A DNA stretch of 64,000 bases, from positions 838,834-902,833 of the forward strand of contig JAUHZY010000001.1 in NCBI GenBank assembly GCA_030425825.1. The letters run 5' to 3'. Within the stretch, counting starts at the first letter, position 1. Each line of letters starts with the position of its first letter. This stretch comes from Alphaproteobacteria bacterium (GTDB lineage Bacteria; Pseudomonadota; Alphaproteobacteria; JAUHZY01). Shown here piece after piece: positions 30,672 to 57,255 of this stretch. Both the position numbers and the translations under genes were made by a program. Below the pieces are notes generated by a model that had not been told where the DNA came from, did no database searches, and worked only from the letters and a program-made list of their open reading frames with translations.

Positions 30672-31313
30672 ATGAGTATTCAAGTCAAAATATGTGGTCT
30701 TAAAGATGAAAAAACACTTCGTGCAGCAATTGATGCTGGTGCAGATTATGTTGGATTTGTTTTTTATCCTAAATCTCCAAGAAGTATTATGTATCAAACA
30801 GCTGCAAAACTTGGCACAATGGTCCCAACTTCCATTAAGAAAGTCGCGCTGATAGTTGATGCAACTGATCAAGAAATATCACAAATTATGAGCTCTTTGT
30901 TACCAGACTTCCTACAATTGCACGGCGCTGAGTCTGAAGATAGAATAGTAGAAATAAAAAAAACTTACCCAAACATAAAAATTATCAAAGCGGTTAATGT
31001 CGCTGAACAATCTGATCTTGAAGCTGCGCAAAAGTTTTTCAATTGTGCTGATATGATGCTTTTTGATGCAAAGCATAGTGGCCAAGACCTGCCGGGCGGA
31101 AATGGTGTCCCTTTCGACTGGGAAGTCTTAAAAGATTTTGATTGCCCTCTTCCATGGATGCTTGCTGGTGGACTTAGGGTCGAAAACATTGCTCAAGCCA
31201 TCAAAATGACACGCTGTAAAATTATTGATGTTTCATCAGGCGTTGAAAGCGCACCTGGAGAAAAAGATATCAAAAAGATTAAGGCGTTTGTGGAAGCTGT
31301 ATCCCTTCTCTAA
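30672..31313 (+). CDS. trpF: Phosphoribosylanthranilate isomerase
   Basis: VKICGL...[16 protein letters not shown]...LAGGL. Confidence 0.85.
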
Positions 31314-31992
31314 GGATATTACTGATATCGTCCTCTTCATTCTTTTGCTTTGCTTCTTCAACTGATCGCTGTTGCTCTTCCAAAAACTTAGATTTTGGAT
31401 AAAGGCGCTCAACTTGCTGACCGACTTGCCATTTTGCTGCGCGATTTTCTGCACGCAACCAATCTCGTCGTGACATTTTGTTTCGTGACGCTTCCATATT
31501 GTGCTTAGTCTGCGAAACATTTAAATACCCTTGGTTTTGCTTTAACGCCAACTTAAACCAAACATAGGCGCGACCATAGTCTACATCCTGATCACCACGA
31601 CCGTCGGCATACATCATACCAACCGCAGCCATTGCAGGCGCAAATCCTGTCAAGGCAGCACGCTCAAACCATTCAAATGCCTGAACATCATCTTTTTCAA
31701 CACCCCAACCTTCTTCATACATCAGTCCTAGATTGTACTGAGCCCAAGGTTCTTGATCCAATGCAAATGAAAGAAAGCCTGTATGTGCAGCTTTATAGTC
31801 TTTCGCGCGATATACCTCAAAAAGATGATCTATCTTTTCTTCTCGTGTCATAGCCTCCTTAGGCGTAGACGTTTTTTCAGAACCTTCCTCAGAAACCACC
31901 TCTGTAGGCGGATCAAGGTCAACCTTTGGAATACCTTCAGCGTGTAGTGAGCAGCTAAAAAAAACAGTAAATAAAACAACAAAATACTTCAT
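31279..31992 (-). CDS. Secreted Sel1-repeat (TPR-like) protein
   Basis: Signal peptide MKYFVVLFTVFFSCSLHA. Sel1 repeats AQYNLGLMYEEGWGVEKD and AMAAVGMMYADGRGDQDVD. Confidence 0.75.
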   Translation of the reverse strand: MKYFVVLFTVFFSCSLHAEGIPKVDLDPPTEVVSEEGSEKTSTPKEAMTREEKIDHLFEVYRAKDYKAAHTGFLSFALDQEPWAQYNLGLMYEEGWGVEKDDVQAFEWFERAALTGFAPAMAAVGMMYADGRGDQDVDYGRAYVWFKLALKQNQGYLNVSQTKHNMEASRNKMSRRDWLRAENRAAKWQVGQQVERLYPKSKFLEEQQRSVEEAKQKNEEDDISNILREGIQLPQTP

Positions 31993-38955: not shown

Positions 38956-38971
38956 TGGCACAAGCACTGCA
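38956..38971 (+). promoter_or_regulatory. Sigma54 (-24/-12) promoter TGGCACaagcaCTGCA upstream of flgE1
   Basis: GG and GC at canonical 10-nt spacing, 40 nt upstream of the flgE1 ATG. Confidence 0.55.
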
Positions 38972-39011: not shown

Positions 39012-40520
39012 ATGAGTGTATTTGGTGCGATGACGACGGGTGTATCTGGGCTGAAAGGCTTTGGCGGCGCTTTGAATCATATCTCTGAGAATATATCGAA
39101 TGTGACGACCTTGGGTTACAAGCGTGTTGAGACACGTTTTTCAACGCTTGTAACGACGTCGACATCACGAGTTCATAATGCAGGTGGTGCGAATATTAAG
39201 CCTTCTTTCAGGATCAGCTCTCAGGGTCTTCAACAACAATCTGACGTATCGACACACTTATCTGTAACAGGTGAAGGGATGTTTACGGTCACAGATCAAT
39301 TGCCTGTTTCTGCGATTACATCTTATGGTCGGAACTCGTTTTATACGCGTGCGGGTGATTTTATTGTTGATCAAGATGGGTATTTGAAAAACGGTGCGGG
39401 ATATTATCTGCAGGGTTGGACAACAGATTCAAGTGGTGATGTGATTAACACCTCGCAATTGGCACCATTGCGTGTCACAGATATTGTTGATGCACCAATG
39501 CAGACAACAACGATTGATTATAATGTGAATGTGCCATCCGGGGTACCACAGCCTTCTGATGTTGACCTTTATAATAGCACAAGCCCCGCAGATGCCTTAG
39601 ACCCAACACATGGAGCATATGGCTCTGTCTTTGGCCCAAACCAGATCCTAATCTATGACTCATTAGGTGGCGAGCATTCTCTGAGTATGTACTGGACAAA
39701 AGTCCCTGCAAACAGGGCTGTAGGTGCTGGAAGTGTTTTTGGGAATAATGCCAACCCAAATAAATGGCTTGTTTCCATCATTCCATCCTCCTCGATTCCT
39801 GGCGTTACAATTGAAACAGAATTCAATGGTATTGGTGCAGCACCACAAACAGAGGCACGCGAACTAGGTATTGAGTTTAATTCTGATGGATCAATTGCTG
39901 GCATCTACCGAAACGAGTCACACAATGTTTATAACACAGGCGCAGCAGCTCCTCCAGGGATTGCTGGTTGGTCATCTATGGTTTTAGAACCATCTGCCAG
40001 CGTCGACATAGACTTGGTATATACGGGCGGCACATACTTACCAACAAGCGCACAAACAGTCACCATTGATTTTGGCACCTTGAATGCAACATCAGGCTCA
40101 ACAACACAGTGGAACGAGCCAGATATTTCGATCAGAAATTTCTTGCAGGATGGCAACCCTGCTGGTGCGGTTGAAAATATTGATATTGATGGCGAAGGTC
40201 TGATCAATCTGAATTTTGATAATGGTAATTCAACGCCACGCTATAAAATTCCTATCGCACGTTTTGCAAACTATAATGGCCTTCAACTGATCGACGGCAA
40301 TGCCTACCTTGCAACCAGCTTTTCTGGTGATGCCTTTTATGCAGCAGCAGGTGATAACGGGCTGGGAACAATTACATCAAATAATCTTGAGCTGTCGAAT
40401 GTTGATTTGGCAGACGAGTTCACAAAAATGATCGTTGTACAAAGAGCTTACAGCGGCAATGCACGTGTCGTGACAGTCGCTGCACAATTACTGGAAGAAG
40501 TCACCGCAATTACACGATAG
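39012..40520 (+). CDS. flgE: Flagellar hook protein FlgE (paralogue 1)
   Basis: N-terminal MSVFGAMTTGVSGLKG..ISENISNVTTLGYKR and C-terminal SNVDLADEFTKMIVVQRAYSGNARVV rod/hook motifs. 502 aa. Confidence 0.85.
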   Translation: MSVFGAMTTGVSGLKGFGGALNHISENISNVTTLGYKRVETRFSTLVTTSTSRVHNAGGANIKPSFRISSQGLQQQSDVSTHLSVTGEGMFTVTDQLPVSAITSYGRNSFYTRAGDFIVDQDGYLKNGAGYYLQGWTTDSSGDVINTSQLAPLRVTDIVDAPMQTTTIDYNVNVPSGVPQPSDVDLYNSTSPADALDPTHGAYGSVFGPNQILIYDSLGGEHSLSMYWTKVPANRAVGAGSVFGNNANPNKWLVSIIPSSSIPGVTIETEFNGIGAAPQTEARELGIEFNSDGSIAGIYRNESHNVYNTGAAAPPGIAGWSSMVLEPSASVDIDLVYTGGTYLPTSAQTVTIDFGTLNATSGSTTQWNEPDISIRNFLQDGNPAGAVENIDIDGEGLINLNFDNGNSTPRYKIPIARFANYNGLQLIDGNAYLATSFSGDAFYAAAGDNGLGTITSNNLELSNVDLADEFTKMIVVQRAYSGNARVVTVAAQLLEEVTAITR

Positions 40521-42979: not shown

Positions 42980-43921
42980 ATGATCAGAGTTCCATTTACT
43001 TTCCAGCCGAAGAAAAAACCTGACTATATTATAGGTATTTACCTTATTCTTATTTCTTCTTTCACTTATGGTTTCAAAAGTACTATTTCAAAAATAGTAT
43101 TTGATGAAGGTGGAGACCCATTCTCTCTTCTTTTTTTAAGCTCTAGCCTGTACTGTCTTCTTTCTTACGCTTGGTTCAAGAAAAAAAATATTCCCTATGA
43201 ACTTTCAAAAAAAATGCGGAAACCAGTCATTATATTGGGGCTTTTATTTACAGCATTTTGTACCTTTTACGCTGCGTCGATTATCTATATTCCCGTCAGC
43301 ATCTCTACACTGATCTTCTTTTCATTTCCTTTCCTAGTTGGTGCACATGCGCACCTGATTATGAAAGACCCTATCCCTGGGAAAAGAGGGATTGCATTCC
43401 TGCTTGCCTTCATAGGACTCTCCCTTATTTTTCTCTCAACAGTTGGAAGCTATCACATTGAAACCATGGGCATTATTCTTTCCGCAACAGGTGCATTTTT
43501 GAAAGCTGCATGTATTATTTACGCACGCCGCCATCAAGACAACAAAACGTCTAGCCTTGTCATTGTTTTCTACATGTGCCTCAGCATGGCTGTGATTACA
43601 GGACTTATCACTTTTATTCGTGGCTTTAATTTACCGCAAACAGCAGAAGGCTATGAAGCACTTTCTTATGCGATTGTTTTCTTTGCGATCGGCATCCCCA
43701 CCTTTTATCTTTCAATACGTTTTATGGGGCCTGTTCGCGTTGCATTCTTTAACTTTCTAGAACCACTTGTAAGTATTTTATCTGCTTATTTCTTACTAGC
43801 CGAAAAGCTGAGTCCTTCACAAGCACTTGGGGCCATACTCATGTTAATTGGCCTAACGCTTATGCCTGTGAGGCGTGGGGCTTACTATTTTAAAACATCA
43901 AAGAAAGTAGACAAAACTTAG
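42980..43921 (+). CDS. EamA/DMT-family transporter
   Basis: 10-TM protein with duplicated EamA-like halves. Confidence 0.7.
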   Translation: MIRVPFTFQPKKKPDYIIGIYLILISSFTYGFKSTISKIVFDEGGDPFSLLFLSSSLYCLLSYAWFKKKNIPYELSKKMRKPVIILGLLFTAFCTFYAASIIYIPVSISTLIFFSFPFLVGAHAHLIMKDPIPGKRGIAFLLAFIGLSLIFLSTVGSYHIETMGIILSATGAFLKAACIIYARRHQDNKTSSLVIVFYMCLSMAVITGLITFIRGFNLPQTAEGYEALSYAIVFFAIGIPTFYLSIRFMGPVRVAFFNFLEPLVSILSAYFLLAEKLSPSQALGAILMLIGLTLMPVRRGAYYFKTSKKVDKT

Positions 43922-44911
43922 CTCAGCAACACGAGATGTCAACTGATAGGAAAGCTCTGTTTGTGTCTGAAGTGATTTCATTTGTGTGACGACTGTCGCA
44001 AGGTCTTCGACAGTATCATTTTTTTCTAAAAACCTTTGGTATATCTGATTCTCTGTTGTGATCTGGTCTATTTTCCGATCAATGAAAACACGCTTGGACT
44101 CTAAACTTCTCAATTCTGCATGATATTGAGATTCGGATGCATTAAGAAGCTGCTCAGCCTGGTCCAGAGATGTTTGCAAAGGCACTGTTGGGTCATTACC
44201 TTCTGCCTTCCTGATGACATCGAGACCATATATTAGATTCTGCAAAAAAGGTTCATATGGTGTAACATCCATTTCAAACAACTGGTCTTGCCCTATATTT
44301 AAATCATATGGTTTATACGTTAAGTATTCGTCTTCTAAGTGTGTCGTATAATCATTAAAATGACTATATGGTGGAATATTCGCAGCGACATCTGGAGGAT
44401 ATAATGGGTCAGCAACAACTGTTGGCAAAGGGTTTAAAGTGTAATCAGTTGTCATATTGCCAATGATTTCAATCGTCATATTCTTTTCTCGCCCATCGCG
44501 ACCATTGAAAAGATAGAAATCTCCTGCGTCTTGAAAGTTCAAAGCATCCTCAATCATTCGCATATATTCTTCAGCGCGCTCCTGCATCTTCAGTGGCGCT
44601 GCCTCATTCAGTGTATCAATCCCCCTAATTGTTTCCTGCATATCATCTATCATATCCTCGAAGAGAGGAAATATATCACTGAACATTTTCAAGCGACGCT
44701 CAATTGTTTCTGCGTTCTGAAGATAACTTTCATTTTTATCAACAATGACCTGAACATTCTTATAGCTTGCCATTTTCGCAGGCGACAAATCTGTATACTC
44801 TTTGATTTTCTCTTGTGAGTTCACTTGGTGCTGAAGATCAGCCATGTTCGACCTATTCGTGTCAAACTCTGTTTGGAAGTGACGAAAAAATGTGGTACTT
44901 GAAATTCTCAT
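43898..44911 (-). CDS. Flagellar hook-associated protein 3 (FlgL-like), paralogue 3
   Basis: N-terminal MRISSTTFF...DL and C-terminal ...QTELSYQLTSRVAELSFVYFL flagellin/FlgL-family termini. No flagellin D0 RINSAKDDAAG motif. Confidence 0.6.
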   Translation of the reverse strand: MRISSTTFFRHFQTEFDTNRSNMADLQHQVNSQEKIKEYTDLSPAKMASYKNVQVIVDKNESYLQNAETIERRLKMFSDIFPLFEDMIDDMQETIRGIDTLNEAAPLKMQERAEEYMRMIEDALNFQDAGDFYLFNGRDGREKNMTIEIIGNMTTDYTLNPLPTVVADPLYPPDVAANIPPYSHFNDYTTHLEDEYLTYKPYDLNIGQDQLFEMDVTPYEPFLQNLIYGLDVIRKAEGNDPTVPLQTSLDQAEQLLNASESQYHAELRSLESKRVFIDRKIDQITTENQIYQRFLEKNDTVEDLATVVTQMKSLQTQTELSYQLTSRVAELSFVYFL

Positions 44912-44912
44912 A

Positions 44913-46673
44913 TTACAAGAACCTATAGAACGACAAGTTGTTCATTGAAGAAGTTGTTTGAAACGACAATTCGATTCTATTCCTCAGCGTCAGCAAGTCT
45001 GCGGCCAGAGCTTCGCTGTCAACGTCGTCCACACCACCAATAATAGATTCATAAATTTCAACTGTTTGATCATGTACCTGCTTTTGATTTTCTAGCATAT
45101 TATGCTGTGAATTAATTTTGTTTTTTGCCTGCTGCAACCCTGTCCTTGCCGCATCCAGGAGTTGCTCTGCAGTTTGCTTAAGCGTGTCAAAATTTGTGTA
45201 GCCAGTAGCGCCAGGTTCCGAAGTTTCAATCGCTTTACGCGCAACATCAAATCCCATAACCAAATTCTGAATAAAAGGTTCATATGCCGACATAGAAATA
45301 TCGACTGTCATCGTATCACTGGTATCAAAATCATAACCGCCATAAGTTTGCGTCTCGTCCTCAAGATGAACATCATGACTATAAAAGTGATTGTATGCAC
45401 CTAGTGTTGCCGCAGATAAAGTTGTCACGACAGATGGCAAAGGTGCGCCATCTGCATAACCATACTTCGATGTGTCCAGAGTCCCCTTCAATGTTCCATG
45501 TTGAACTGCAGCCTCAATATCAAGAAGGTTTGCAGAGGGTGGTGGGCCACTGTAAATCACAATTTCAGAAGTGTAATACTCCGCAAGATCCATCAAGCGA
45601 AAATTGCTTAAAGTTGACGCAGGCGTCCCCGTTAATGTTGAGTTGTTCGTGGCACCATCTACGCGAAAAGAGCTGTTTACGCCATCTTCAACCTGGCTGA
45701 CGACTTGCGCCCCAACATCAAAGTCCGTATTAACAATAGACCCTCCAGTAAAAGTTGCCGTATCTGTTGCGCCATTTAGTTGGAAGCTACCTGCAGCACT
45801 TCCTTCCCAAACCTGTGTGCCACTAACATAATCCACGACACCCGTTACAGCAGCGGAAGCATTTGCTCCTGTACTTGAGGACATACCATCCGTGCCATCA
45901 AAATAAAGCCCAGGCTTTCCTTCGCCAAAATGGTCCAAAACAATCGTGGGACGAAAGCCTGGTGCAATTGGCGTCAAATTATCTCCACCGATTTGATCAT
46001 ACCATATCGATACCTGCCCTGTTGTGCCGTGTAAAAAATCCTCTAAAGCATTTACATCTAAGCGACCTTTATCGTCAAACCCAACATCCAACGTCGCAAA
46101 GTCACTTGTGCGTATAACTTGTATAGCATCGCCTGCATACGTTTCAGACAAACGCCTTAAAGCATAACCATTTTCAGCGCCCGCAACATCATCTACAACA
46201 CGATACGAACCATCTGACGCTTCAAAGAAACGGATATCTGCATCTGCTTTTCGACCATCACGCCCATTAAATAAATAGAAATTATCCTGAATTTTCGAGT
46301 TTAATAGAGCCTCTACTTCACGAAGATAATCGTCAGCAAGGTTGGCCATAATTGTCGCGCTGTCATCATCTCTGTTTGTTGCATCAATAACAGATGTATA
46401 AACATCATCAAGTAATGTTTCAAACTGTTCAAAAACCTTTAAAAAACCTTCAAACCTACTTTGTGCAACTTCAATATTCAAAGCATAGTTTTCATGCTTT
46501 TCGATCATCAGCTGTGCATCACGAAACTGACGAATATTTTTACTTCCAACATCGGCAAGGTCTTTTGTTTTTTGACTTGTTTGAAGTTGTCGCGTCACAT
46601 CGTCAGATTGATCAAGCATTGTTTTATTAAGCTGATTCATCTGAAAAATATATGATTGATTTGTGACGCGCAT
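44913..46673 (-). CDS. FlgL-like hook-associated protein, paralogue 2 (586 aa)
   Basis: N-terminal MRVTNQSYIFQMNQ...KDLADVG, C-terminal ...ELSFQTTSSMNNLSFYRFL. Confidence 0.6.
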   Translation of the reverse strand: MRVTNQSYIFQMNQLNKTMLDQSDDVTRQLQTSQKTKDLADVGSKNIRQFRDAQLMIEKHENYALNIEVAQSRFEGFLKVFEQFETLLDDVYTSVIDATNRDDDSATIMANLADDYLREVEALLNSKIQDNFYLFNGRDGRKADADIRFFEASDGSYRVVDDVAGAENGYALRRLSETYAGDAIQVIRTSDFATLDVGFDDKGRLDVNALEDFLHGTTGQVSIWYDQIGGDNLTPIAPGFRPTIVLDHFGEGKPGLYFDGTDGMSSSTGANASAAVTGVVDYVSGTQVWEGSAAGSFQLNGATDTATFTGGSIVNTDFDVGAQVVSQVEDGVNSSFRVDGATNNSTLTGTPASTLSNFRLMDLAEYYTSEIVIYSGPPPSANLLDIEAAVQHGTLKGTLDTSKYGYADGAPLPSVVTTLSAATLGAYNHFYSHDVHLEDETQTYGGYDFDTSDTMTVDISMSAYEPFIQNLVMGFDVARKAIETSEPGATGYTNFDTLKQTAEQLLDAARTGLQQAKNKINSQHNMLENQKQVHDQTVEIYESIIGGVDDVDSEALAADLLTLRNRIELSFQTTSSMNNLSFYRFL

Positions 46674-46684
46674 GTTTTACTCCC

Positions 46685-47728
46685 TTAAAAAGAAAGAAAC
46701 TCAAGCAAGCTTAAGTTTTTCAGCGTAGCTGTTGTGCTAAAAGAAGCTTCAAGCTGTGTTTGCAAAGAAGCAAGCTTTGTCGCAGCTTCTGTTGTTTCAA
46801 CACCGTCTAAATCAACTAAAACATCTTCAAAAAAGTTAATCTCAGATTGATGGCGTTCTTTAACATTATGAAGACGTAACAGAGAAACTTCAGCCTCACG
46901 AATAGCGTGCGGCAAGCCAGCTTCACTTGTCGCGGTTGCGGTACTTAACTCAGCTTCTTCTAAATACTGTAATGCCGTTGAAACACTTGTTTCGAAAGCA
47001 ACTGTTGGCATTGAATCCAAAGCCTTGCGAGCAATATCAAGGGCATAAACCACCTTTTGAATCTCTTCTTCATAAGGTGTTGCGCTATACGCGATTGACT
47101 CAACATCGCTTACTTGAACTGAATCACGTTGCAAGTCCGAATCTGCAGGGCCAGGCAATGTTGGCGCAGGTGTTTTGTTAGTAATATAATAGGGAATGTC
47201 GCCTGGAACATCGCCACCTGCAAGTGGTATTGGCACATTAATAGGAAACGGATCACCTCCATTATAATCATATGGAGCTGCATCAAACATATCAAAACTA
47301 ATAGGCTCAAAGCGCGTATAACCACCCAACACACGCCCACCATCTGGTGCTTGTGTATTTAATAAGTCCTCTAAAAGATCAAAACTTTTTTCTGCAAACT
47401 CAACCATTTGAGAGGCTGTTGGCTCTGTTGACGTTGTTGTGTTTTTCAACATCCCCTGCACATCATTTACGACAGTCTGAATTGTCTCAAAAATTGTAAT
47501 CGTTTGTGTCAGGCGTGTTTCAGCTTTTTCAATATTTTCGATATAACGATTAGCATTTTTTGTTGCAGATTCAAAATTAATATATTTTTTAACCTCAAAA
47601 CCAACGCCTGCTAGGTCTCTTGCTCTCTCGCCTGTAGAGATTTGAAGCTGCAAGTTAAGCATTTCTGATTTGGTCGCTGTAAAACGATTATTCAAATCAT
47701 AAAAATATCCTGGATTGCTAATTCTCAT
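46685..47728 (-). CDS. flgL: Flagellar hook-associated protein 3 FlgL
   Basis: MRISNPGYF...QISTGERARDLAGVG, C-terminal ...LEASFSTTATLKNLSLLEFLSF. Confidence 0.65.
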   Translation of the reverse strand: MRISNPGYFYDLNNRFTATKSEMLNLQLQISTGERARDLAGVGFEVKKYINFESATKNANRYIENIEKAETRLTQTITIFETIQTVVNDVQGMLKNTTTSTEPTASQMVEFAEKSFDLLEDLLNTQAPDGGRVLGGYTRFEPISFDMFDAAPYDYNGGDPFPINVPIPLAGGDVPGDIPYYITNKTPAPTLPGPADSDLQRDSVQVSDVESIAYSATPYEEEIQKVVYALDIARKALDSMPTVAFETSVSTALQYLEEAELSTATATSEAGLPHAIREAEVSLLRLHNVKERHQSEINFFEDVLVDLDGVETTEAATKLASLQTQLEASFSTTATLKNLSLLEFLSF

Positions 47729-47747: not shown

Positions 47748-49190
47748 CTATCGACCTACAATGGCTATTAATTGATCCATCAAATCAGAAGCTGTTTGTA
47801 AAACACGAGCAGATGCTGCATATGCTTGCTGCAACTGGATAAGGAAAGCCATTTCTTCATCCAAGTTAACAGCCGAAACATCTAAATAAGCATTTTGCAA
47901 AGACTCATAAGATACTGTGCTGTATTCTGCCTCTTCTCTTGCGTCATAAGTTTGTAAAGCAATATTCTTTGCCAAGTCTTCTATATCTTCAAGCGACCCA
48001 CCTGATGCTTTTATCGCCTGCGCGACTGTCAAAGCTGAGGTTGGCTCAAGATAGGTATTGGCATCTAATTGGTCTGTCGCAACGTAAGCAACACCAGAGC
48101 TAGGATTCGTGAACGGAGGGTTCGTTAATGTATCTAAGTTTCCTGTAACACGTGCAAAGGTAGCCAGTTCGGCTTCCTGGTCTATTGGCAAAGTATAATC
48201 CATTCGAAACAAGGGTGCTGTTGTGTATGTTACGGGTGGGCCAGCTGCCGTTTCAACAACATGGAGTGCAGTTCCTGTATCAGATATCAGTTGGTCTACA
48301 GCCGAATAGAGTTCATTTTGGCGGGCACTTAAAATGCCTGCTGTAGGATCAATCAAACCATAAAGCGAAGATAACTCACCGCTGTTCAAGGTTGACTGAA
48401 TTGGTGACGAAGGTGCCCCCGAGGCATAAAGATTGTAAGGCGCAGCAGGATCGACACTTAACGTTCTTGCAGACACGTCAACAAGAGATATCCCTCCCCC
48501 TGTTAGAACATGAAGCCTATTGTTTGAGCCATTTAATGTTTTTACATCCATTTTTTCAGAAAGCGTCTTCAACAACATATCGCGTTGATCCATAAGCCCC
48601 GTGGGATCGTCTCCTGAAATTGTTAGATTTTCAATTTGATCATTCAACGTTGATATACGCTCTAAAAGGTCATTGACTTCTGTCACGACCGTATTAATCT
48701 CTTCAACGACTTCTATTTCTGTGTCAATAAAGAAGTTATTCAGAGTCAAGACGCGCTCAACAACATCGTCTGCTGCTGCAATCACAAGCTGCTGTTCTGG
48801 CGAACTTGTGTCAGCTAATGGCGAAGCAGCAAAGTCCTCAAATGCAGACAAGAGATCTTCCATCGCACCAAGCACAAAGCCAACACCATCTTTTGATGAC
48901 CCAAAAGCATCATGCATCATATCAATGTATTCAGACGTTTTTGATGCTGCTGCACGCCTAGAATTGCCGTTTAAAACATCTCTATAAAGTGACTCATCCG
49001 TCAATCGTTCAACAGATCGAAGCTGCACACCTGAAGGCTGACCATCAAGGTTTATAGATTCAAGACGTGCGGTTTTCTTTGTGTACCCCTCGGTATTCAC
49101 ATTTGAAATATTTTGAGAGGTATAACGCAACTGTTCCTGAGTGCCTCTTAGCCCAGATGTTGCATTAAATATTGATGACAACAACGTCAT
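47748..49190 (-). CDS. flgK: Flagellar hook-associated protein 1 FlgK
   Basis: N-terminal MTLLSSIFNATSGLRG...QNISNVNTEGYTKK, C-terminal ASARVLQTASDLMDQLIAIVGR. Confidence 0.8.
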   Translation of the reverse strand: MTLLSSIFNATSGLRGTQEQLRYTSQNISNVNTEGYTKKTARLESINLDGQPSGVQLRSVERLTDESLYRDVLNGNSRRAAASKTSEYIDMMHDAFGSSKDGVGFVLGAMEDLLSAFEDFAASPLADTSSPEQQLVIAAADDVVERVLTLNNFFIDTEIEVVEEINTVVTEVNDLLERISTLNDQIENLTISGDDPTGLMDQRDMLLKTLSEKMDVKTLNGSNNRLHVLTGGGISLVDVSARTLSVDPAAPYNLYASGAPSSPIQSTLNSGELSSLYGLIDPTAGILSARQNELYSAVDQLISDTGTALHVVETAAGPPVTYTTAPLFRMDYTLPIDQEAELATFARVTGNLDTLTNPPFTNPSSGVAYVATDQLDANTYLEPTSALTVAQAIKASGGSLEDIEDLAKNIALQTYDAREEAEYSTVSYESLQNAYLDVSAVNLDEEMAFLIQLQQAYAASARVLQTASDLMDQLIAIVGR

Positions 49191-49234
49191 ACTTATGTCC
49201 TCCAAAAATTATTTTCTAGGGGTCTCTCCTAAAA

Positions 49235-50728
49235 TTACTGACCTAATCTTGTTGCTTCTGTTAACAACTCATCCGCAATAGTAACAACCCTTGCATTCGC
49301 TGAATAAGCTCGCTGAACAATAATCATTTTGGTAAATTCATCAGCCAAATCAACATTTGATTTCTCTAGGTTGTTTGAGGTAAACGTCCCCATACCATTG
49401 GTCCCAGCATCTGTGTAGAATGCATCTCCAGAAAGCGATGTTACTGTGTAAGCATTACCATCCGTCAACTGCAAGCCATCAAAGTTGGCAAAGCTTGCTA
49501 CTGGAATTTTATAGAATGGTTTTGTCGTTCCATTATCAAACGCCAACTGAACAAAACCGTCTGAATCAATCGAAAGATTTTCAACTGCACCCGCAGGCAC
49601 ACCGTCTTGTTGGAAGTTACGAATAGATAAATCTGGCTCATTCCATTGTGTGGTACTTCCAGAAGAAGCGCCAATTGTACCCAGGTCAATTGTAATTGTT
49701 TGCGGATTGGTAGGAAGCGTCCCTGTAACAGGATAATCAACGACAACATCAAAACCTGCCGAGTTTAACTGGTTCCACGTTCCACCTGCACCCGCACCAT
49801 AAAGGTTTGCACCTGTATGTGACCACGTATCAATAATTGTTCCATCATCATCAAATTCAACACCCAGCTCAATTTCTGACCTTGTTGCACCTACGGCTTC
49901 GCCAGAATGTCGTAATGTAACAGCACCGCCCGGATCAGGAATCATCGTCAGCAACCACTTATTTGGGTTCACAGCAGGAGCCTGAACACCATCATCAAAA
50001 GCAAGACCATACCCTGCCGTATTAGGAACCTTTGTCCAATACATTGACATTGTATGTTCCCCTCCCAAAGTATCATAAAATAAAATCTGAGAAGGGCCAA
50101 AAATACTGTCGTAACTTCCTGCTGTAGAAGAAACATTAGAAGGGCTTGTAAAACCATTCGTACCATCAATATCTGCTTCCGCAGCAGCAGCGGCAGAAGA
50201 AGGCACATTTGAAACATAGTCAATTGTTGTTGTTGCAACGGGCGCATCAACAATATCAGTCACACGCATTGGAGTCAGTTGAGATGTATTTAAAACCTGC
50301 CCTGTTGCTGTGTCTAATTGCCAACCCTGCAAGAAATATCCTGCACCATTCTTAAGATACCCATCTTCATCAACGCCATAGTCACCTGCACGTGTATAAT
50401 AAAGATTACGTCCAAAACTTACCAAAGGAGATGTATTCACCTCATCTGATACAACAAACATACCTGACCCTGTGATTGACATGTGTGTTGCGACATCAGA
50501 CTGCTCTTGCAAACCTTGAGAATTAATACGGTAAGAAGGCACTGTTGTTGCACCACCTGCACTATGAAGCCTAGGCGTTGAGTTTGTAACAAGCGTTGAA
50601 AATCTTGTCTCAATTCTTTTATAACCAATTGTTGTAACGTTTGATATGTTTTCGGAAATGTGATTCAAGGCATTACCAAACCCCTTCAACCCCGAAACCC
50701 CGGTGTTCATTGCGCCGAAAACACTCAT
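49235..50728 (-). CDS. flgE: Flagellar hook protein FlgE (paralogue 2)
   Basis: Same termini as paralogue 1: about 85% aa identity over the first 90 aa and about 75% nt identity at the 5' end. 497 aa. Confidence 0.85.
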   Translation of the reverse strand: MSVFGAMNTGVSGLKGFGNALNHISENISNVTTIGYKRIETRFSTLVTNSTPRLHSAGGATTVPSYRINSQGLQEQSDVATHMSITGSGMFVVSDEVNTSPLVSFGRNLYYTRAGDYGVDEDGYLKNGAGYFLQGWQLDTATGQVLNTSQLTPMRVTDIVDAPVATTTIDYVSNVPSSAAAAAEADIDGTNGFTSPSNVSSTAGSYDSIFGPSQILFYDTLGGEHTMSMYWTKVPNTAGYGLAFDDGVQAPAVNPNKWLLTMIPDPGGAVTLRHSGEAVGATRSEIELGVEFDDDGTIIDTWSHTGANLYGAGAGGTWNQLNSAGFDVVVDYPVTGTLPTNPQTITIDLGTIGASSGSTTQWNEPDLSIRNFQQDGVPAGAVENLSIDSDGFVQLAFDNGTTKPFYKIPVASFANFDGLQLTDGNAYTVTSLSGDAFYTDAGTNGMGTFTSNNLEKSNVDLADEFTKMIIVQRAYSANARVVTIADELLTEATRLGQ

Positions 50729-50789
50729 TTAGATACCTCCTGAAAGACTAAAACTTAAATATTCTGTCAAAAAATGACGCTGGGTATCT

Positions 50790-50805
50790 TGCAATGACCG
50801 TGCCA
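50790..50805 (-). promoter_or_regulatory. Sigma54 promoter TGGCACggtcaTTGCA (minus strand) upstream of flgE2-flgK-flgL operon
   Basis: Perfect consensus, about 60 nt upstream of the flgE2 ATG. GGAGG RBS follows. Confidence 0.65.
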
Positions 50806-51075
50806 AAAAAAATAAAGAGCGCCATGTTTTCTAAAAAAATCAATCAAAATCAATAATATAAACTTTAAACCAAAACCCAAAACCTCAGTTTAAAGGCCAC
50901 GAAAATAATACTTCGTTTAGCAAGCATCTCCTTAAGCACGGCAAAAACATCAAACACCCTCCTGGCTAGGCAAATTTGGCGGCATATATTACCTATTTTT
51001 TAGGTATTGCAACTATGATATACCACATTTAGTTGCTCGTTTTTTGCAAGAAACAAAATTTGGTATTAACGAACT

Positions 51076-54000
51076 ATGACTGTTTATAAATACACAGAAG
51101 CTCTTAAGTCACCTTGGGCAGTACTTGACTTTGATCCATCAGCAGATGTGCTCAACTTTTCTGGCGTGGCCCTTTCAAAGATATATCTGATTCTTGATGA
51201 TAGAGGCGTTTTGTTTGTCGCACCTAATTATGGTTCTCTGTTTGTTCCAGGCTTATCACTTTCTGAAATATCTGTAGGAGGTGCCAACGCAAATATAGTT
51301 GGCCACGGCAACGCACAGCTTGTTGTTTCAGAAGATAATACAGGTCTCGACACAATGCCAGCAGCCGAATACACCTACGGCGATGGTGGATCAAATAGCC
51401 TTTCAGGCTCTGAGACCACAGACTTTATTTACGGTTTTGAAGGTAGAGACACTATTATTGGTGGTGAAGGTAATGACACCCTCCTCGGGGACGAAGGCAA
51501 TGACTCTATCGTTGGTGGTGATGATGACGATGTTATCCACGGCAATGGTGGCGAAGATGATATTGACGGAGATGATGGACACGACTTTTTACGCGGCGGA
51601 AAAGAAGATGACTCTATAAGGGGCGGCCTTGGGAATGACAGCCTTTATGGAGATAAAGGAAATGATACGCTGCTTGGCGAAAACGGTGAAGACCAGCTTT
51701 ACGGCGGCGAAGGCAATGACAGTCTTGTTGGCGACGACAATAATGATTTTCTTCAAGGGAATGAAGGTGAAGACCAGCTTTATGGTGGCGATGATCACGA
51801 CACAATTCGTGGCGGAAAAGACAATGATACAATTGATGGGGAAGAAGGAAACGACAGCCTGCTTGGCGATCTTGGTGATGACTTTATTGTTGGCAACAGC
51901 GGGCATGACTTTATAGAAGGCGGCGCAAGTCGTGACACAATCGATGGCGGTAATAACAATGATACACTGCAAGGTGGTGAGAACAATGACAGCCTTGTCG
52001 GGGGCATGGGTGATGACTCTATAAGAGGTGGAAAACACGAAGATATTCTTATCGGTGGAAGCGGAAATGACGTCGCAAAAGGCGATCTTGGGGATGATGC
52101 GGTTACTGGAGGGTCCAATAATGACTTCCTAGAAGGTGGTGACGGCACAGATACATTTTATTTTCACTATGATATGTGCGTTGTCAGCAGAGATGCCTCC
52201 ATCGACAACACAGACCAAATTATTGGGGATGGTGACGATACCATTAACGACTTTGAAGCCGCAACTGACCTTTTATATATTGAGTTAAACAATGCCGTCA
52301 CAGTTGTCGACAACGAAGGCGCTTCAGTTTACTACGACGCAGCACAAATATCTGTTGATGCAAGCAGCGGAGATATTTTCATCTGGGCCGCAGGATCGAC
52401 AAACAACCATGCTATACGTCTGGTAGGGCAGGATGTTGCATCTGAAGATTTCAGCGCAACAAACCTGGATCAATTAATAAATGATTATAATTTCAACATT
52501 ACCTTTGACAATATTGATGACGCACAAACAATCAATGGCACCGCTGCTGCAGATGACATCACCGGTGGCAATGCGAATGATATTATTTATGCATCCGGAA
52601 ATGATGATATTGTTGATGGTTATCTTGGTGATGATTCTATCAATGGCGGAGACGGCGATGATACACTAGACGGTGGGGCAGGAAACGACACAAGTCGTGG
52701 AAATACAGGTGATGATATTCTTTATGGGGATGTTGGCAATGACTCTCTTCTTGGGGAAAATGGCAATGATACACTAGATGGTGGCAGTGGTAATGATGCC
52801 CTTATTGGCGGACTGGGCGACGATGTTTATATTATAGATGGTAATGATACAATCACAGAGGCAGCAGCCCAGGGAACAGACGAAGTACAAGCTACAGAAA
52901 GCTATACACTTGCCGCAAACCTTGAGAATCTTACTCTCCTTGGAACAGAAAACTTAAGTGGAACAGGAAACACTTCCGACAACAGTATTACTGGAAATGA
53001 TGGCGGCAATACACTTAATGGCGGGAATGGTGATGATACACTATACGGAGATAGTGGTCATGATACAGCCTATGGTGGTGATGATGATGACAGCATTGAT
53101 GGGGGATCAGGGAATGATGTCTTAGAGGGTGGCGACGGGAATGATACTTTAAGCGGTGGCGATAACAATGACACCTTAGATGGGGGAACAGGAAACGATA
53201 TTATCTTTGGCGGCAGTGGAGTTGATAACATTTTGGGTGGTGAAGGCAACGATATCCTGCGCGGCGGTGATGGAAACGACACCATCGGCGGTGGAGCAGG
53301 CGATGATACAGTCCGCGGAGACAATAATGATGACAGCCTTTTAGGAGGAGATGGCAACGATATCGTCGGTGGCGGAAATGGCGACGACACACTCGAAGGT
53401 AATGCAGGAAATGATAGCCTCCTCGGCGGATCCGGCAATGACAGAATGACTGACAGTTTTGGAGAAAACAGCTTTGCTGCTGGCACTGGGGATGACATCG
53501 TTGTTGCGGGCGATTCTGCTGATGATATTTCTGGCGATGATGGTGATGACACATTAAACGGAAACGACGGTGATGATACAATGCATGGCGGTAGCGGCAA
53601 TGATACCGTGCTTGGTGGCACTGGTGATGACACACTCAATGGTGGCGATGATGATGATACGCTTGAAGGTGGCAACGGAGAGGATAGCATCGCAGGTGAT
53701 AGCGGGAATGATACGCTTGAAGGCGACGATGGGGATGACACACTTTTTGGCAATGACGGCGAAGATACAGTACTTGGTGGAACTGGGGATGATACGCTTC
53801 ATGGCGGCAGCGGGAATGACTCACTAGAAGGTAACGATGGTGACGACAGCATCCTTGGCGGCACAGGAAACGATACATTGTCAGGTAATACTGGTGACGA
53901 CACGCTTCATGGTGGCAGCGGGAATGACTCACTAGAAGGTAATGATGGGGATGATAGCATCCTTGGCGGCACAGGAAATGATACGATCCGAGGGGAAAGC

Positions 54001-54561
54001 GATGATGATACTCTTCTTGGTGGAACTGGAGAAGACAGCATCCTTGGCGGTGATAGCGCTGACGTTATTCTTGGCGGCAAAAGCTCTGATACACTTAGCG
54101 GTGGAACAGGAAATGACTCTATATCAGGTGAATCTGGCGCAGATTACCTCTTTGGCGGCGTTGGCAATGATACGCTTGAAGGTGGCGAAGATGTCGATAC
54201 CTTTGTTTTCTCATACGATATGGGCGACCTAGACTTTGCTGCCAGCAGAGATAAACTAGGCAGTATTACAGGTGATGGATATGACTTTGTTATGGACTTT
54301 TCTGTCGGCACAGACGTCTTAGACATCAGGTTTGACAATACACAAGGCGTCAACAGCGGTGGTGCCCTTGTCAGCTATACAGCAGGACTTGTCTCTATCG
54401 TATCTCAAGGCTTGGGGGTTGTAGACATCTTTATTGACACACAAACAAGTGGCGTTCAGCTTATCAGACTAATGAATCAAGGTGGAATTGCCGGGAACAA
54501 CTTAAGTGAACTAGACAGTATAGATGGTTACAACATTATTTTTAACGGCGTCGTGCTTTAA
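51076..54561 (+). CDS. Giant RTX-repeat Ca-binding protein (putative type I secretion substrate, 1161 aa)
   Basis: Dozens of GGxGxDxxx nonapeptides (GGEGNDTLLGDEGNDSIVGGDDDD...). Two blocks (DTFYFHYDM...GDGDDTINDFEAATDLLYIEL and DTFVFSYDM...DFVMDFSVGTDVLDIRFD) resemble T1SS C-terminal target domains. Confidence 0.85.
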   Translation: MTVYKYTEALKSPWAVLDFDPSADVLNFSGVALSKIYLILDDRGVLFVAPNYGSLFVPGLSLSEISVGGANANIVGHGNAQLVVSEDNTGLDTMPAAEYTYGDGGSNSLSGSETTDFIYGFEGRDTIIGGEGNDTLLGDEGNDSIVGGDDDDVIHGNGGEDDIDGDDGHDFLRGGKEDDSIRGGLGNDSLYGDKGNDTLLGENGEDQLYGGEGNDSLVGDDNNDFLQGNEGEDQLYGGDDHDTIRGGKDNDTIDGEEGNDSLLGDLGDDFIVGNSGHDFIEGGASRDTIDGGNNNDTLQGGENNDSLVGGMGDDSIRGGKHEDILIGGSGNDVAKGDLGDDAVTGGSNNDFLEGGDGTDTFYFHYDMCVVSRDASIDNTDQIIGDGDDTINDFEAATDLLYIELNNAVTVVDNEGASVYYDAAQISVDASSGDIFIWAAGSTNNHAIRLVGQDVASEDFSATNLDQLINDYNFNITFDNIDDAQTINGTAAADDITGGNANDIIYASGNDDIVDGYLGDDSINGGDGDDTLDGGAGNDTSRGNTGDDILYGDVGNDSLLGENGNDTLDGGSGNDALIGGLGDDVYIIDGNDTITEAAAQGTDEVQATESYTLAANLENLTLLGTENLSGTGNTSDNSITGNDGGNTLNGGNGDDTLYGDSGHDTAYGGDDDDSIDGGSGNDVLEGGDGNDTLSGGDNNDTLDGGTGNDIIFGGSGVDNILGGEGNDILRGGDGNDTIGGGAGDDTVRGDNNDDSLLGGDGNDIVGGGNGDDTLEGNAGNDSLLGGSGNDRMTDSFGENSFAAGTGDDIVVAGDSADDISGDDGDDTLNGNDGDDTMHGGSGNDTVLGGTGDDTLNGGDDDDTLEGGNGEDSIAGDSGNDTLEGDDGDDTLFGNDGEDTVLGGTGDDTLHGGSGNDSLEGNDGDDSILGGTGNDTLSGNTGDDTLHGGSGNDSLEGNDGDDSILGGTGNDTIRGESDDDTLLGGTGEDSILGGDSADVILGGKSSDTLSGGTGNDSISGESGADYLFGGVGNDTLEGGEDVDTFVFSYDMGDLDFAASRDKLGSITGDGYDFVMDFSVGTDVLDIRFDNTQGVNSGGALVSYTAGLVSIVSQGLGVVDIFIDTQTSGVQLIRLMNQGGIAGNNLSELDSIDGYNIIFNGVVL
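53794..54009 (+). repeat. 108-nt tandem duplication inside the RTX gene
   Basis: Unit 53794-53876 versus 53902-53984 are near-identical. Each encodes TLHGGSGNDSLEGNDGDDSILGGTGNDT. Confidence 0.6.
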
Positions 54562-55955
54562 CGTCGATCATCAGAGTCAGTTGCTTCCAACAATGTTTCA
54601 AACATTTCATCTGCTGTCTTAACAACTGCAGCATTCGCTTTGTAAGCCGCACTTGCAATCATCATATCGGTTATTTCATCATCCAGGGAAACATTACTCT
54701 GCTCAATCGAATTAGCAGAGATACTACCTATTCCCGCATTGCCTGGTGTTGTTACAAAAGGCTGCCCTGAATACGCAGAAACCTCATATGCATTTCCTCG
54801 CACCTGCTTTAATCCGGAATAATTGTTAAAATCTGCAACAGCAACCTGTGAAACATTTTGCGTTGTTCCATTTTCAAATGAAGCAACTACAGCCCCTTTT
54901 GAATCAATAGAAACATCCTGAAGTTGACCAGACTGCTTGCCATCTTGTGACAGAGCTTGAACGCCGATACTACTTCCTGCAAAACTTGTCGTGCTGGATG
55001 TCACCTTGCCTATTTCTCCAAGATTAATAGAAACATTTTGTGGTGATGCGGGACGATACGTCCCGCCACTGAAGTCAAGCTGTATACCAAATGACCCCGC
55101 ACCTGTCGCAGCGCCGAAAGTGGCTGCCCCTGTACCATGTACTGGCCCGGATGTTGGATAAACACCTGCCAAAGCACCATTTGAATCAAATTCAACCCCC
55201 ACCTCGAAGAAGCTCTGCGATCCCCCTAAACTTGGCGCATCTATTTGCAGATTGGCCCCTGATACTGCAGAGCTTCCCGAAACACTTAGAATATATTTGT
55301 TGCCACCAGCAGAGCCAAACGAAGACGCTAAGCCACCTGCTGGGTCAAGCTTTGTAAAATTAAGTTCCAATGTATGTTCACCACCAAGCGAGTCAACAAC
55401 TTTTGTCTGAATAGGCCCTTGTACATTTGCAAGTGATGATGCGCTGGCAGCCGCAGCAATATCTGCATCTGAAGATGTCGCCGCGTTAGATGGCACGTTG
55501 GCTTGCAAAGATACCTGAGATGTTGGAACAGGACCGCTTGTAAGTTCAGAAACCTTTATTGGAGACAATGCGCCAGCCCCTCCTTCTGATGGGAACCCAA
55601 GCAAATAATAGCCTGCACTATTTCTCAAAAATCCATCTCCGTCTGGCGCAAAATCACCCGATCTTGTGTAAAACTGCCCACCATTCCCATCGGATCTGTC
55701 GCTGACAGCAAAAAGTCCAGGTCCATTAAGGGCTAGATTTGTTGAAACATCTGTTGATGTTTGACTCCCTCCGATGCCCACTGTGTAAACAGGGTGCGTT
55801 TTGACGCCGCCAGAGGATGTTGTTTGGTAACGTGTATCAACACGAGAATAGCCAGAACTTGAAGCGTTTGAGATATTTTGTGAAATATTATTTAAACCAC
55901 GCGAAAAGGCGTTGAGACCTGATACACCGTTAATTAATGAGCTATATAATGTCAT
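54558..55955 (-). CDS. FlgE-like hook-family protein (paralogue 3, divergent)
   Basis: N-terminal MTLYSSLINGVSGLNAF..ISQNISNASSSGYSR, C-terminal SNVSLDDEITDMMIASAAYKANAAVV. 3' end overlaps RTX gene stop by 4 nt (convergent). Confidence 0.75.
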   Translation of the reverse strand: MTLYSSLINGVSGLNAFSRGLNNISQNISNASSSGYSRVDTRYQTTSSGGVKTHPVYTVGIGGSQTSTDVSTNLALNGPGLFAVSDRSDGNGGQFYTRSGDFAPDGDGFLRNSAGYYLLGFPSEGGAGALSPIKVSELTSGPVPTSQVSLQANVPSNAATSSDADIAAAASASSLANVQGPIQTKVVDSLGGEHTLELNFTKLDPAGGLASSFGSAGGNKYILSVSGSSAVSGANLQIDAPSLGGSQSFFEVGVEFDSNGALAGVYPTSGPVHGTGAATFGAATGAGSFGIQLDFSGGTYRPASPQNVSINLGEIGKVTSSTTSFAGSSIGVQALSQDGKQSGQLQDVSIDSKGAVVASFENGTTQNVSQVAVADFNNYSGLKQVRGNAYEVSAYSGQPFVTTPGNAGIGSISANSIEQSNVSLDDEITDMMIASAAYKANAAVVKTADEMFETLLEATDSDDRR

Positions 55956-56055
55956 ATCGTGCGCTCCTTTTTGGCTAGCACTTCGCTTCTCGTTATTAAG
56001 AACAACTTTTGACCATTATAGCACAATTTTTAAGCACATTGAACCCCTGCGGAAG

Positions 56056-57255
56056 CTAGGAAACTTCAAGCCATTTTGACATTTCTTCTTGAATTGAATC
56101 ACTTTTTATCGCCTGGCGAACACTGCTCATTAGATCATTCATAAAATGAATATTGTGAATCGCAAGAAGCTGCATTCCTAACATTTCTTTTGCTTTGAAA
56201 AGGTGATGGATATATCCCCTACTATGTGTCTGGCAAGTATAACAACCGCATGATGTGTCCAACGGCTCTGGATCATTTTTGAATCTGGCATTCACTAAAT
56301 TCAGATTTGTTTCACGCCCCTTTATATAAGCGCTTCCATGCCGCGCAATACGTGTCGGTGTTACACAGTCAAAGGTATCAATCCCACGCTGCACACCTTC
56401 CCAAACATCACGAATACCACCAATTCCTAGAAGGTGTACAGGGCAATCACGGCGCACATAATCCATTGCCATGGATGTTACGTCATACATTTGTTCTTTA
56501 GAGCTTCCAAGACAACCGCCCACAGCAATACCAAAAAAATCTTGCTCTGAAGCAAATTCAGCGCTTTCTTTTCGAAGGTCGGCATAAACACCTCCCTGTA
56601 CGATACCATATAGTGCTTGAGGTTTTTTTGTTGCTGGACTTACAGTATCTTTTCTAAACTGCTCAAGCCCACGCTTTGCCCAACGATGAGACATGCGCAT
56701 TGAGTTTGCTGTATAATCTTTTGTAACATGAAAAGGCGTGCACTCATCAAGAACAAGGATAATATCAGCCCCAATTTTCCGTTGAATCTCGATAGCTGAT
56801 TCTGGTGTTAATGTTTTAATAGATCCATCAATATAAGATTTAAATCTTGCGCCAGACTCGTCAATTCCCAGGAGTGACTTTTTGCGCTTTTGACTTTGCT
56901 GCTCCCCTTTGATTTCTGCAACAACACCACCATGTCCTAGCGAAAACACCTGAAAACCACCAGAGTCCGTCAACATAGGGCCATCCCAACCTGTAAACTT
57001 ATGCAAACCGCCCATTTCACAGATCAGGTCTTCACCTGGCTGCAAATGTAAGTGATACGTGTTGCCTAGAATAATTTGTGTATTTTCATCTTTTGTTTGC
57101 TTGATCGTCGCAATTTTCATTGCAGCTTTGGTCGCACAAAAAATAAAAGCAGGTGTCTCAAGTGGGCCATGAGGTGTGTTTAAGGTCCCAATTCTGGCAC
57201 GACTTTTCTGTGATGTATAATGTATATCGAAAGAAAACTCAGGGTAAGAGTCCAT
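56056..57255 (-). CDS. tgt: Queuine tRNA-ribosyltransferase
   Basis: TDSGGFQV...LGIGG... Zn site CGCYTC..H. Confidence 0.9.
   Translation of the reverse strand: MDSYPEFSFDIHYTSQKSRARIGTLNTPHGPLETPAFIFCATKAAMKIATIKQTKDENTQIILGNTYHLHLQPGEDLICEMGGLHKFTGWDGPMLTDSGGFQVFSLGHGGVVAEIKGEQQSQKRKKSLLGIDESGARFKSYIDGSIKTLTPESAIEIQRKIGADIILVLDECTPFHVTKDYTANSMRMSHRWAKRGLEQFRKDTVSPATKKPQALYGIVQGGVYADLRKESAEFASEQDFFGIAVGGCLGSSKEQMYDVTSMAMDYVRRDCPVHLLGIGGIRDVWEGVQRGIDTFDCVTPTRIARHGSAYIKGRETNLNLVNARFKNDPEPLDTSCGCYTCQTHSRGYIHHLFKAKEMLGMQLLAIHNIHFMNDLMSSVRQAIKSDSIQEEMSKWLEVS

Follow-up and report, generated by a model that had tools for sequence, protein, structure and literature searches.

A large RTX-repeat gene located between two flagellar hook genes was characterized computationally in a 64,000-nt stretch of an alphaproteobacterial genome assembly (GCA_030425825.1, contig JAUHZY010000001.1, positions 838,834 to 902,833; hereafter the window, to which coordinates refer unless another locus is named). 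The open reading frame (ORF) at 51076–54561 on the plus strand starts with ATG and, according to the ORF list and its translation, encodes 1161 amino acids followed by a stop codon. We consider it reasonably probable that the gene product is a secreted, calcium-dependent β-roll protein from a small subfamily not described before, that it is exported by a type I secretion system (T1SS) encoded elsewhere in the genome, and that it acts as a structural or adhesive protein at the cell surface or in the extracellular space, not as a component of the flagellum. The protein is probably a T1SS substrate, as judged from architecture and structural resemblance, because it has no Sec signal, is acidic, carries RTX blocks with cap domains, and terminates in a region whose predicted model resembles known T1SS substrates.

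Domain architecture of the RTX protein

The Pfam family HemolysinCabind (PF00353) matched 30 stretches of the protein (E = 1.7e-142; 462.8 bits against a cutoff of 23), and a Pfam scan of the whole sequence returned no other family. Tandem GGxGxDxUx calcium-binding nonapeptides, the feature that places a protein among the RTX proteins, are present throughout the repeat blocks, with 32 GGxGxD motifs under a strict definition and 57 under a relaxed one. Gly and Asp make up 20% and 18% of the residues, Asp and Glu together number 253 versus 27 for Lys and Arg, and the 117 kDa product has a pI of 4.05 and a single Cys. The acidic, 1161-residue GGxGxD protein of the original prediction was thus recovered, but its description as composed almost entirely of nonapeptides was too generous, since the repeats cover ~744 of the 1161 residues (64%). 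In the DNA, a 27-nt periodicity is visible, mostly at 60–77% identity, along with a younger 108-nt tandem unit at 53701–54023. An independent Logan assembly of ERR3428545 agrees letter for letter across 19.4 kb, a span that includes the whole RTX gene. Antisense ORFs within the gene (e.g., 53070–53753, minus strand) were taken as by-products of repeat composition and set aside.

The domain order, read along the plus strand, begins with a non-RTX N-terminal domain (N-domain; residues 1–112, 51076–51411). Its first residues, MTVYKYTEALKSPWAVLDFDPS, have neither the basic n-region nor the hydrophobic core of a Sec or Tat signal peptide when read directly from the sequence. RTX block 1 (residues ~113–358, 51412–52149), delimited by nonapeptide positions and modeled by AlphaFold2 as a β-roll with a predicted local distance difference test (pLDDT) score of 80–94, leads into the internal cap domain A (residues 359–484, 52150–52527), which starts with the motif DTFYFHYDM. 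RTX block 2 (residues 485–582, 52528–52821) is separated by a linker bearing a DVYIIDG...ENLTLLG motif (residues 583–640, 52822–52995) from RTX block 3 (residues 641–1040, 52996–54195); both blocks were placed by their nonapeptide positions, and the latter contains the 108-nt tandem unit. The protein closes with cap domain B (residues 1041–1161, 54196–54558), supported by the AlphaFold2 model and Foldseek, which ends in YNIIFNGVVL and is the presumed folding nucleus and T1SS signal region. Caps A and B, each ~125 aa, are homologous (36% identity, E = 7e-14), and on this sequence evidence an RTX-plus-cap module has been duplicated within the protein. Two internal blocks resembling T1SS C-terminal target domains had been proposed originally: the two homologous caps correspond to them, with the corrections that only one is internal, the other being the true C-terminus, and that the curated target-domain model matches neither (see below).

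AlphaFold2 modeling of residues 940–1161 (222 aa), run with a six-row family alignment, gave a pLDDT of 90.2 and a predicted TM-score (pTM) of 0.90, with the RTX β-roll predicted at pLDDT > 90. The best matches to this C-terminal model in a Foldseek search of the PDB were all RTX/cap modules of classical T1SS substrates, namely blocks IV–V of CyaA, the R-modules of AlgE6 and AlgE4, the Pseudomonas MIS38 (PML) lipase, and the serralysins PrtC, AprA, and Serratia protease (6sus, 2ml3, 2zvd, 1k7g, 1kap, and 1smp; E = 2e-4 to 1e-3, TMq up to ~0.5). At the sequence level, cap A, cap B, and the N-domain yielded zero Pfam or NCBIfam model matches even at E ≤ 10, and PDB profile searches with N-domain and cap profiles returned nothing significant, the N-domain matches lying at chance level (E about 1). 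The AlphaFold2 model of the N-domain is β-rich and of low confidence (pLDDT about 55–65), and a fold search with this model produced matches only through the β-roll. The linker resembles the N-terminal region of NCBIfam EglC (endo-1,3-1,4-β-glycanase) at E = 8e-10, far below the EglC cutoff.

Several known systems invite comparison. RTX exoproteins exported by T1SS, such as serralysin, AprA, PrtC, the family I.3 lipases, and CyaA, are alike in their nonapeptide β-rolls, the cap that follows the repeats, their acidic pI, and the absence of a Sec signal. The RTX protein differs from them in that no catalytic or toxin domain was detected with Pfam or NCBIfam, no cognate T1SS genes lie nearby, and sequence searches of Pfam, NCBIfam, and the PDB detected no relatives of its caps or N-domain. 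The R-modules of the AlgE mannuronan C5-epimerases from Azotobacter vinelandii likewise reuse a unit of RTX repeats and a ~100-aa β extension in internal and C-terminal positions, and AlgE6 R1–R3 and the AlgE4 R-module stand among the top structural matches, accompanied by a weak sequence match to 2ml2. In contrast to AlgE, the RTX protein has no epimerase A-module and much longer RTX blocks, and identity is about 20%. Among RTX adhesins such as FrhA of Vibrio cholerae and those of the LapA/MpIBP type, a link between expression and the flagellar hierarchy has been described (PMC10865825, PMC10523503). Such adhesins consist mainly of Ig-like extenders and ligand-binding domains, have a retention module at the N-terminus, and confine their RTX repeats to a short C-terminal block; Pfam found no Ig-like extender, retention module, or ligand-binding domain in the RTX protein.

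A further parallel is offered by the RTX proteins of S-layers, which are acidic, poor in Cys, and equipped with an N-terminal anchoring domain (PMC3034196). RsaA of the alphaproteobacterium Caulobacter crescentus, SwmA, and oscillin resemble the RTX protein in their size of ~100–130 kDa, their acidity and near absence of Cys, and their succession of an N-terminal non-RTX domain and repeats; they also carry an uncleaved C-terminal signal (PMC3034196), of the kind presumed for cap B. Against RsaA specifically, PDB profile searches with the N-domain and the caps gave no similarity, no rsaD/rsaE-like exporter genes are adjacent to the RTX gene, and the RTX protein has far more repeats than RsaA's five. 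Because it is acidic, Cys-poor, and ~117 kDa, with a conserved N-domain, no catalytic domain, and no hydrophobic pore-forming region found in it, analogy suggests that the protein resembles S-layer and other surface RTX proteins more than toxins.

Relatives, locus, and origin of the gene

When the two caps served as profiles in an exhaustive search of 1.84 billion representative proteins, only 5 proteins matched. JGI metagenome scans with the cap alignment and the N-domain alignment found no relatives, and word-index searches with the C-terminal domain and the N-domain alignment were blank, which is uninformative because the query protein itself lies outside that collection. P0001 (2366 aa, labeled "calcium-binding protein" by NCBI) and P0004 (449 aa), each from an alphaproteobacterial metagenome-assembled genome, share with the RTX protein the N-domain from Met1, RTX blocks, a cap, and a hydrophobic C-terminal end of the form ...Y-x-I-x-F-N-G. 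N-domain identity is 70% to the ortholog at locus L030, described below, and about 30% to P0004 and P0001. Judged from these alignments, the family is small and has conserved termini.

None of the three distant family loci (L027–L029) contains flagellar or T1SS genes in its context. L028 is surrounded by assorted metabolic and regulatory genes, L029 has rml sugar genes with a giant, frame-broken RTX gene downstream, and L027 carries two tandem RTX genes followed by genes for an FkbM methyltransferase and a 2-oxoglutarate (2OG)-oxygenase-like protein. At L027 (3060–7420), P0004 is encoded in tandem with a second RTX gene of 466 aa, with an overlap into the start of the FkbM-type methyltransferase gene. 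The FkbM-type methyltransferase and the 2OG-Fe(II)-oxygenase-like neighbor hint at post-translational modification of these RTX proteins.

In the window, the RTX gene is flanked by flgE2 (49235–50728, minus strand), the first gene of a flgE2-flgK-flgL-like operon, and by flgE3 (54558–55955, minus strand). Both are true FlgE paralogs by Pfam and NCBIfam, with 35% identity to each other. As stated in the original prediction, the RTX gene diverges from flgE2 across a 347-nt spacer (50729–51075) and converges on flgE3 with a 4-nt overlap (54558–54561), formed by the RTX stop codon TAA at 54559–54561 and the flgE3 stop codon at 54558–54560 on the minus strand. Since the stop codons overlap and no terminator-like hairpin is present between the two genes in either direction, read-through would yield mutual antisense transcripts. 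An Rfam scan of 49000–57000 detected no RNA family.

Comparison with related loci suggests how this arrangement arose. The closest other organism (L030), whose FlgE2 is 75% identical, has a block comprising EamA, three FlgL-like genes, flgK, flgE2, and an RTX ortholog divergent from flgE2. The ortholog (L030 4138–6975, minus strand) is 59% identical over residues 1–925 and has no cap B, homology stopping where an unrelated 3-keto-disaccharide-hydrolase-like gene begins; no flgE3 follows it, and the far flank is rearranged. This truncation may be real, marking a rearrangement breakpoint, or may be an artifact of a 3x-coverage assembly. At L031–L033, where the FlgE2-like protein is 53% identical, a flgE3 ortholog sits directly upstream of the flgE2-like gene and no RTX gene is present. 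The L031 flgE3 ortholog is 42% identical to flgE3, and the ~100-nt spacer that separates it from the flgE2-like gene holds a sigma54-type promoter. A scan with FlgE2 yielded 24 more distant flgE loci, alphaproteobacterial and others, the best match being 37% identical; no RTX gene lies within 10 kb of flgE at any of them. No close relative of the organism appeared among the GTDB r232 species representatives. Because flgE3 and flgE2 are adjacent without an RTX gene at L031–L033, the simplest history suggested by these sequences starts from an ancestral flgE3-flgE2-flgK array; the lineage of the window then gained the RTX gene as an insertion in the opposite orientation. Recent horizontal transfer of the gene was considered and rejected, given that its third-position GC content (GC3, 0.37) and relative synonymous codon usage (r = 0.86) lie within the native range; its raised overall GC content (0.47) is due to Gly and Asp codons. 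The borders of the gene display no flanking inverted repeats, insertion sequence element, or tRNA.

Promoter motifs distinguish the two divergent genes. The sigma54 promoter of flgE2, TGGCACGGTCATTGCA (50790–50805, minus strand), is the sole zero-mismatch match in the window; it is kept at L030, and a similar site occurs upstream of the L031 flgE2-like gene. On the RTX strand, the window and L030 both have no GG-N10-GC (sigma54), TAAA-N15-GCCGATAA-like (sigma28), or TTAA-N7-TTAA (CtrA box) motif, so that none of the promoter classes of a flagellar regulon (sigma54 with enhancer, sigma28, or CtrA box) was found for the RTX gene. The spacer does contain a 22-nt island, CGGCATATATTACCTATTTTTT (50980–51001), which is unique in the window and matches L030 perfectly within otherwise diverged sequence. 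It lies 75–95 nt upstream of the RTX ATG and ~175–210 nt upstream of the flgE2 sigma54 promoter and, because of its distances to both, could be either a promoter or operator of the RTX gene or an upstream enhancer of the flgE2 promoter, the sequence being undecided between them. The hook operon of Caulobacter and a divergent unit share sigma54/ftr elements, according to work cited in PMC3096577. By analogy, a control region shared by the RTX gene and flgE2 is possible but would need a sigma54 promoter, which is absent for the RTX gene.

Secretion route and competing explanations

A calcium-ratchet model of export is known from work on CyaA. The mechanism proposed for the RTX protein is drawn from established RTX biology (PMC3034196), in which an acidic, Sec-less chain would stay unfolded in the low-calcium cytoplasm until an exporter made up of an ATP-binding cassette (ABC) protein, a membrane fusion protein (MFP), and TolC recognizes cap B together with the hydrophobic C-terminal tail ...FNGVVL. 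The chain would leave the cell C-terminus first. Once outside, calcium would fold cap B and then RTX block 3, and cap A would likewise nucleate the folding of RTX block 1, each cap thereby acting as the folding nucleus for the block that precedes it. The product would consist of three rigid β-roll rods, with ~744 repeat residues and a total length of roughly 20 nm, joined by small globular domains, and the N-domain, emerging last, would be a candidate for anchoring or ligand binding. The position of the gene would reflect a lineage-specific insertion into the ancestral contiguous flgE3-flgE2-flgK cluster, and the gene appears to use a promoter of its own that is not of a flagellar type.

Several observations weigh against this proposal. 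A scan of every ORF of at least 330 aa found no T1SS ABC, MFP, or TolC gene in the window, in agreement with the original prediction; the ORFs big enough for such components are housekeeping or flagellar genes. T1SS genes are equally absent from the flanks, 9 kb on the left (L035) and ~3 kb on the right (L002), the whole search covering ~76 kb (the 64-kb window and ~12 kb of flanks). The curated NCBIfam T1SS C-terminal target domain was unmatched by the full protein at E ≤ 0.001 and by the caps at E ≤ 10. That domain (VC_A0849 subclass) is presumably TIGR03661, and T1SS signals are in general too weakly conserved for calling from sequence. The original label of a T1SS-like RTX substrate accordingly stands on architecture and structural likeness and loses the support of a curated target-domain match. 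The lack of cap B in the L030 ortholog means either that this module is not needed there or that this copy is decaying or misassembled, and the preservation at L030 of both the divergent RTX–flgE2 pair and the 22-nt island possibly reflects shared regulation. As for the missing exporter genes, RTX proteins are exported by T1SS from genes that are often unlinked to those of the T1SS (PMC3034196).

A functional tie or co-regulation with the flagellum, as first suggested from the location of the gene, is the alternative that the locus itself raises. A flagellum-coupled surface protein, co-regulated with late flagellar genes through the 347-nt region and serving as a motility-phase adhesin or a calcium-assembled sheath or coat, is unlikely but carries some weight: the divergent pairing with flgE2-flgK-flgL-like genes persists at L030 despite the rearranged far flank, the 22-nt island in the shared spacer is perfectly conserved, and the hook and junction gene set of this organism is unusually elaborate. 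Precedents are available in FrhA, a flagellar-regulated RTX adhesin of V. cholerae (PMC10865825), and in the flagellar sheath of Magnetococcus massalia MO-1, a calcium-assembled glycoprotein of >350 kDa (PMC7175107), which is alike in a conceptual sense only, as a large calcium-dependent extracellular protein functionally associated with the flagella of a proteobacterium. The balance tips against such coupling because the RTX gene is missing from the flgE3–flgE2 junction at L031–L033, the distant family members at L027–L029 are not near flagellar genes, and the RTX strand has no flagellar-class promoter. Adjacency to flgE is also made less special by the dispersal of at least six flgE paralogs in the genome; no RTX neighbor accompanies the other paralog loci seen (flgE1 and L034), in line with the 24 distant flgE loci mentioned above. 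The conserved pair and island at L030 nevertheless keep a slim chance alive for the flagellar hypothesis. Its strongest form makes the protein a genuine accessory of an unusual flagellum in a lineage with multiplied hook and junction genes, where it would either assemble with calcium into a coat or sheath or form an adhesive appendage of hook or filament. Expression would come from a region shared with flgE2, under the island as a common control element. This form is improbable, and a variant in which the protein is exported through the flagellar channel itself is even less likely. For a substrate of flagellar type III export, the conserved N-terminus would be the export signal, and the chain would pass through the hook and filament channel to fold with calcium outside. 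The absence of T1SS genes from the region examined, an N-terminus conserved from residue 1, and the adjoining hook genes would fit this scheme, which we regard as extremely unlikely: Pfam and NCBIfam detected no flagellar axial-protein N or C termini (Flg_bb_rod, flagellin-type) in the RTX protein, whereas its neighbors match clearly, the family members lie away from flagellar genes, and the C-terminus is built as in T1SS substrates. To our knowledge, an RTX protein using the flagellar export route has no precedent.

Two further explanations treat the location as incidental or the gene as spent. The protein could be an offensive exoprotein secreted by T1SS, namely an RTX cytolysin, a bacteriocin, or a factor for attacking prey, from an alphaproteobacterium that has a small genome and is possibly a predator or associated with a host. 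The RTX family does include cytolysins and bacteriocins (PMC3034196), Micavibrio encodes six "hemolysin-related" RTX proteins with predicted T1SS export (PMC3189940), and the source chromosome contig is small (1.66 Mb), with Sel1- and TPR-repeat proteins encoded nearby. This role is nonetheless doubtful for a protein that is nearly all β-roll and small β domains, with no pore-forming region, catalytic domain, or toxin domain and no hlyC-like acyltransferase gene found with the RTX gene. A decaying, non-functional remnant rich in repeats and tolerated between two hook genes would account for the truncated L030 ortholog, the weak Shine-Dalgarno sequence before the RTX ATG, and the convergence on flgE3 without a terminator. 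It is very unlikely given a frame that is intact over 1161 codons despite the repeats, a conserved start and N-domain, 59% amino acid identity maintained in frame over 925 codons between species, native codon usage, and identical sequence in two assemblies. A secreted β-roll surface protein, probably exported by an unlinked T1SS, thus remains our preferred reading.

Hook-gene expansion and wider meaning

The source chromosome contig (1,662,365 bp, or 1.66 Mb; 40% GC) carries at least six dispersed FlgE paralogs that are 35–63% identical to flgE2. Several are single genes among housekeeping genes, one of them standing alone between rpoC and glmS (L034 3322–4836). The paralogs also differ in promoter type, with sigma54 sites for flgE2 and flgE1 (39012–40520, plus strand; one-mismatch site at 38956–38971, plus strand) and a conserved extended −10 box, TTGTGCTATAATGGT, for flgE3. 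Downstream of flgE2 lie flgK and three tandem FlgL/flagellin-like genes (46685–47728, 44913–46673, and 43898–44911, all on the minus strand), one of which encodes a 586-aa protein with a large inserted domain (weak ArabFuran-catal match). The trio is kept at L030; in the more distant relative at L031, this place is taken by two FlgK genes and several others that are unannotated.

Elsewhere in the window, a Sel1-repeat protein (31279–31992, minus strand) and two large TPR proteins (59709–62222 and 62219–64000, plus strand) are encoded. A bufferin-type cluster for a ribosomally synthesized and post-translationally modified peptide (RiPP) occupies 4628–8532 (L035 13709–17613) and contains DoxX, DUF2063/HvfC, a 385-aa protein without a Pfam match, a small BufA1 (PF10048) precursor gene, and an MbnB/TglH/ChrH enzyme.

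If the preferred reading is true, the gene represents a rare RTX subfamily, with five detectable relatives among the 1.84 billion representative proteins, and would contribute a new N-terminal domain and a reusable β-roll-plus-cap module, mainly of use for annotation. Because it was apparently inserted into a hook-gene cluster, it would also be a case of a misleading gene neighborhood. Should the pairing with flgE2 reflect true co-regulation, the protein would join Vibrio FrhA as a second example of RTX surface proteins under the flagellar program, or would be a candidate for a proteinaceous coat of the flagellum. More unusual than the RTX gene is the neighboring expansion of hook (at least six FlgE) and FlgL-like paralogs on a chromosome contig of 1.66 Mb.

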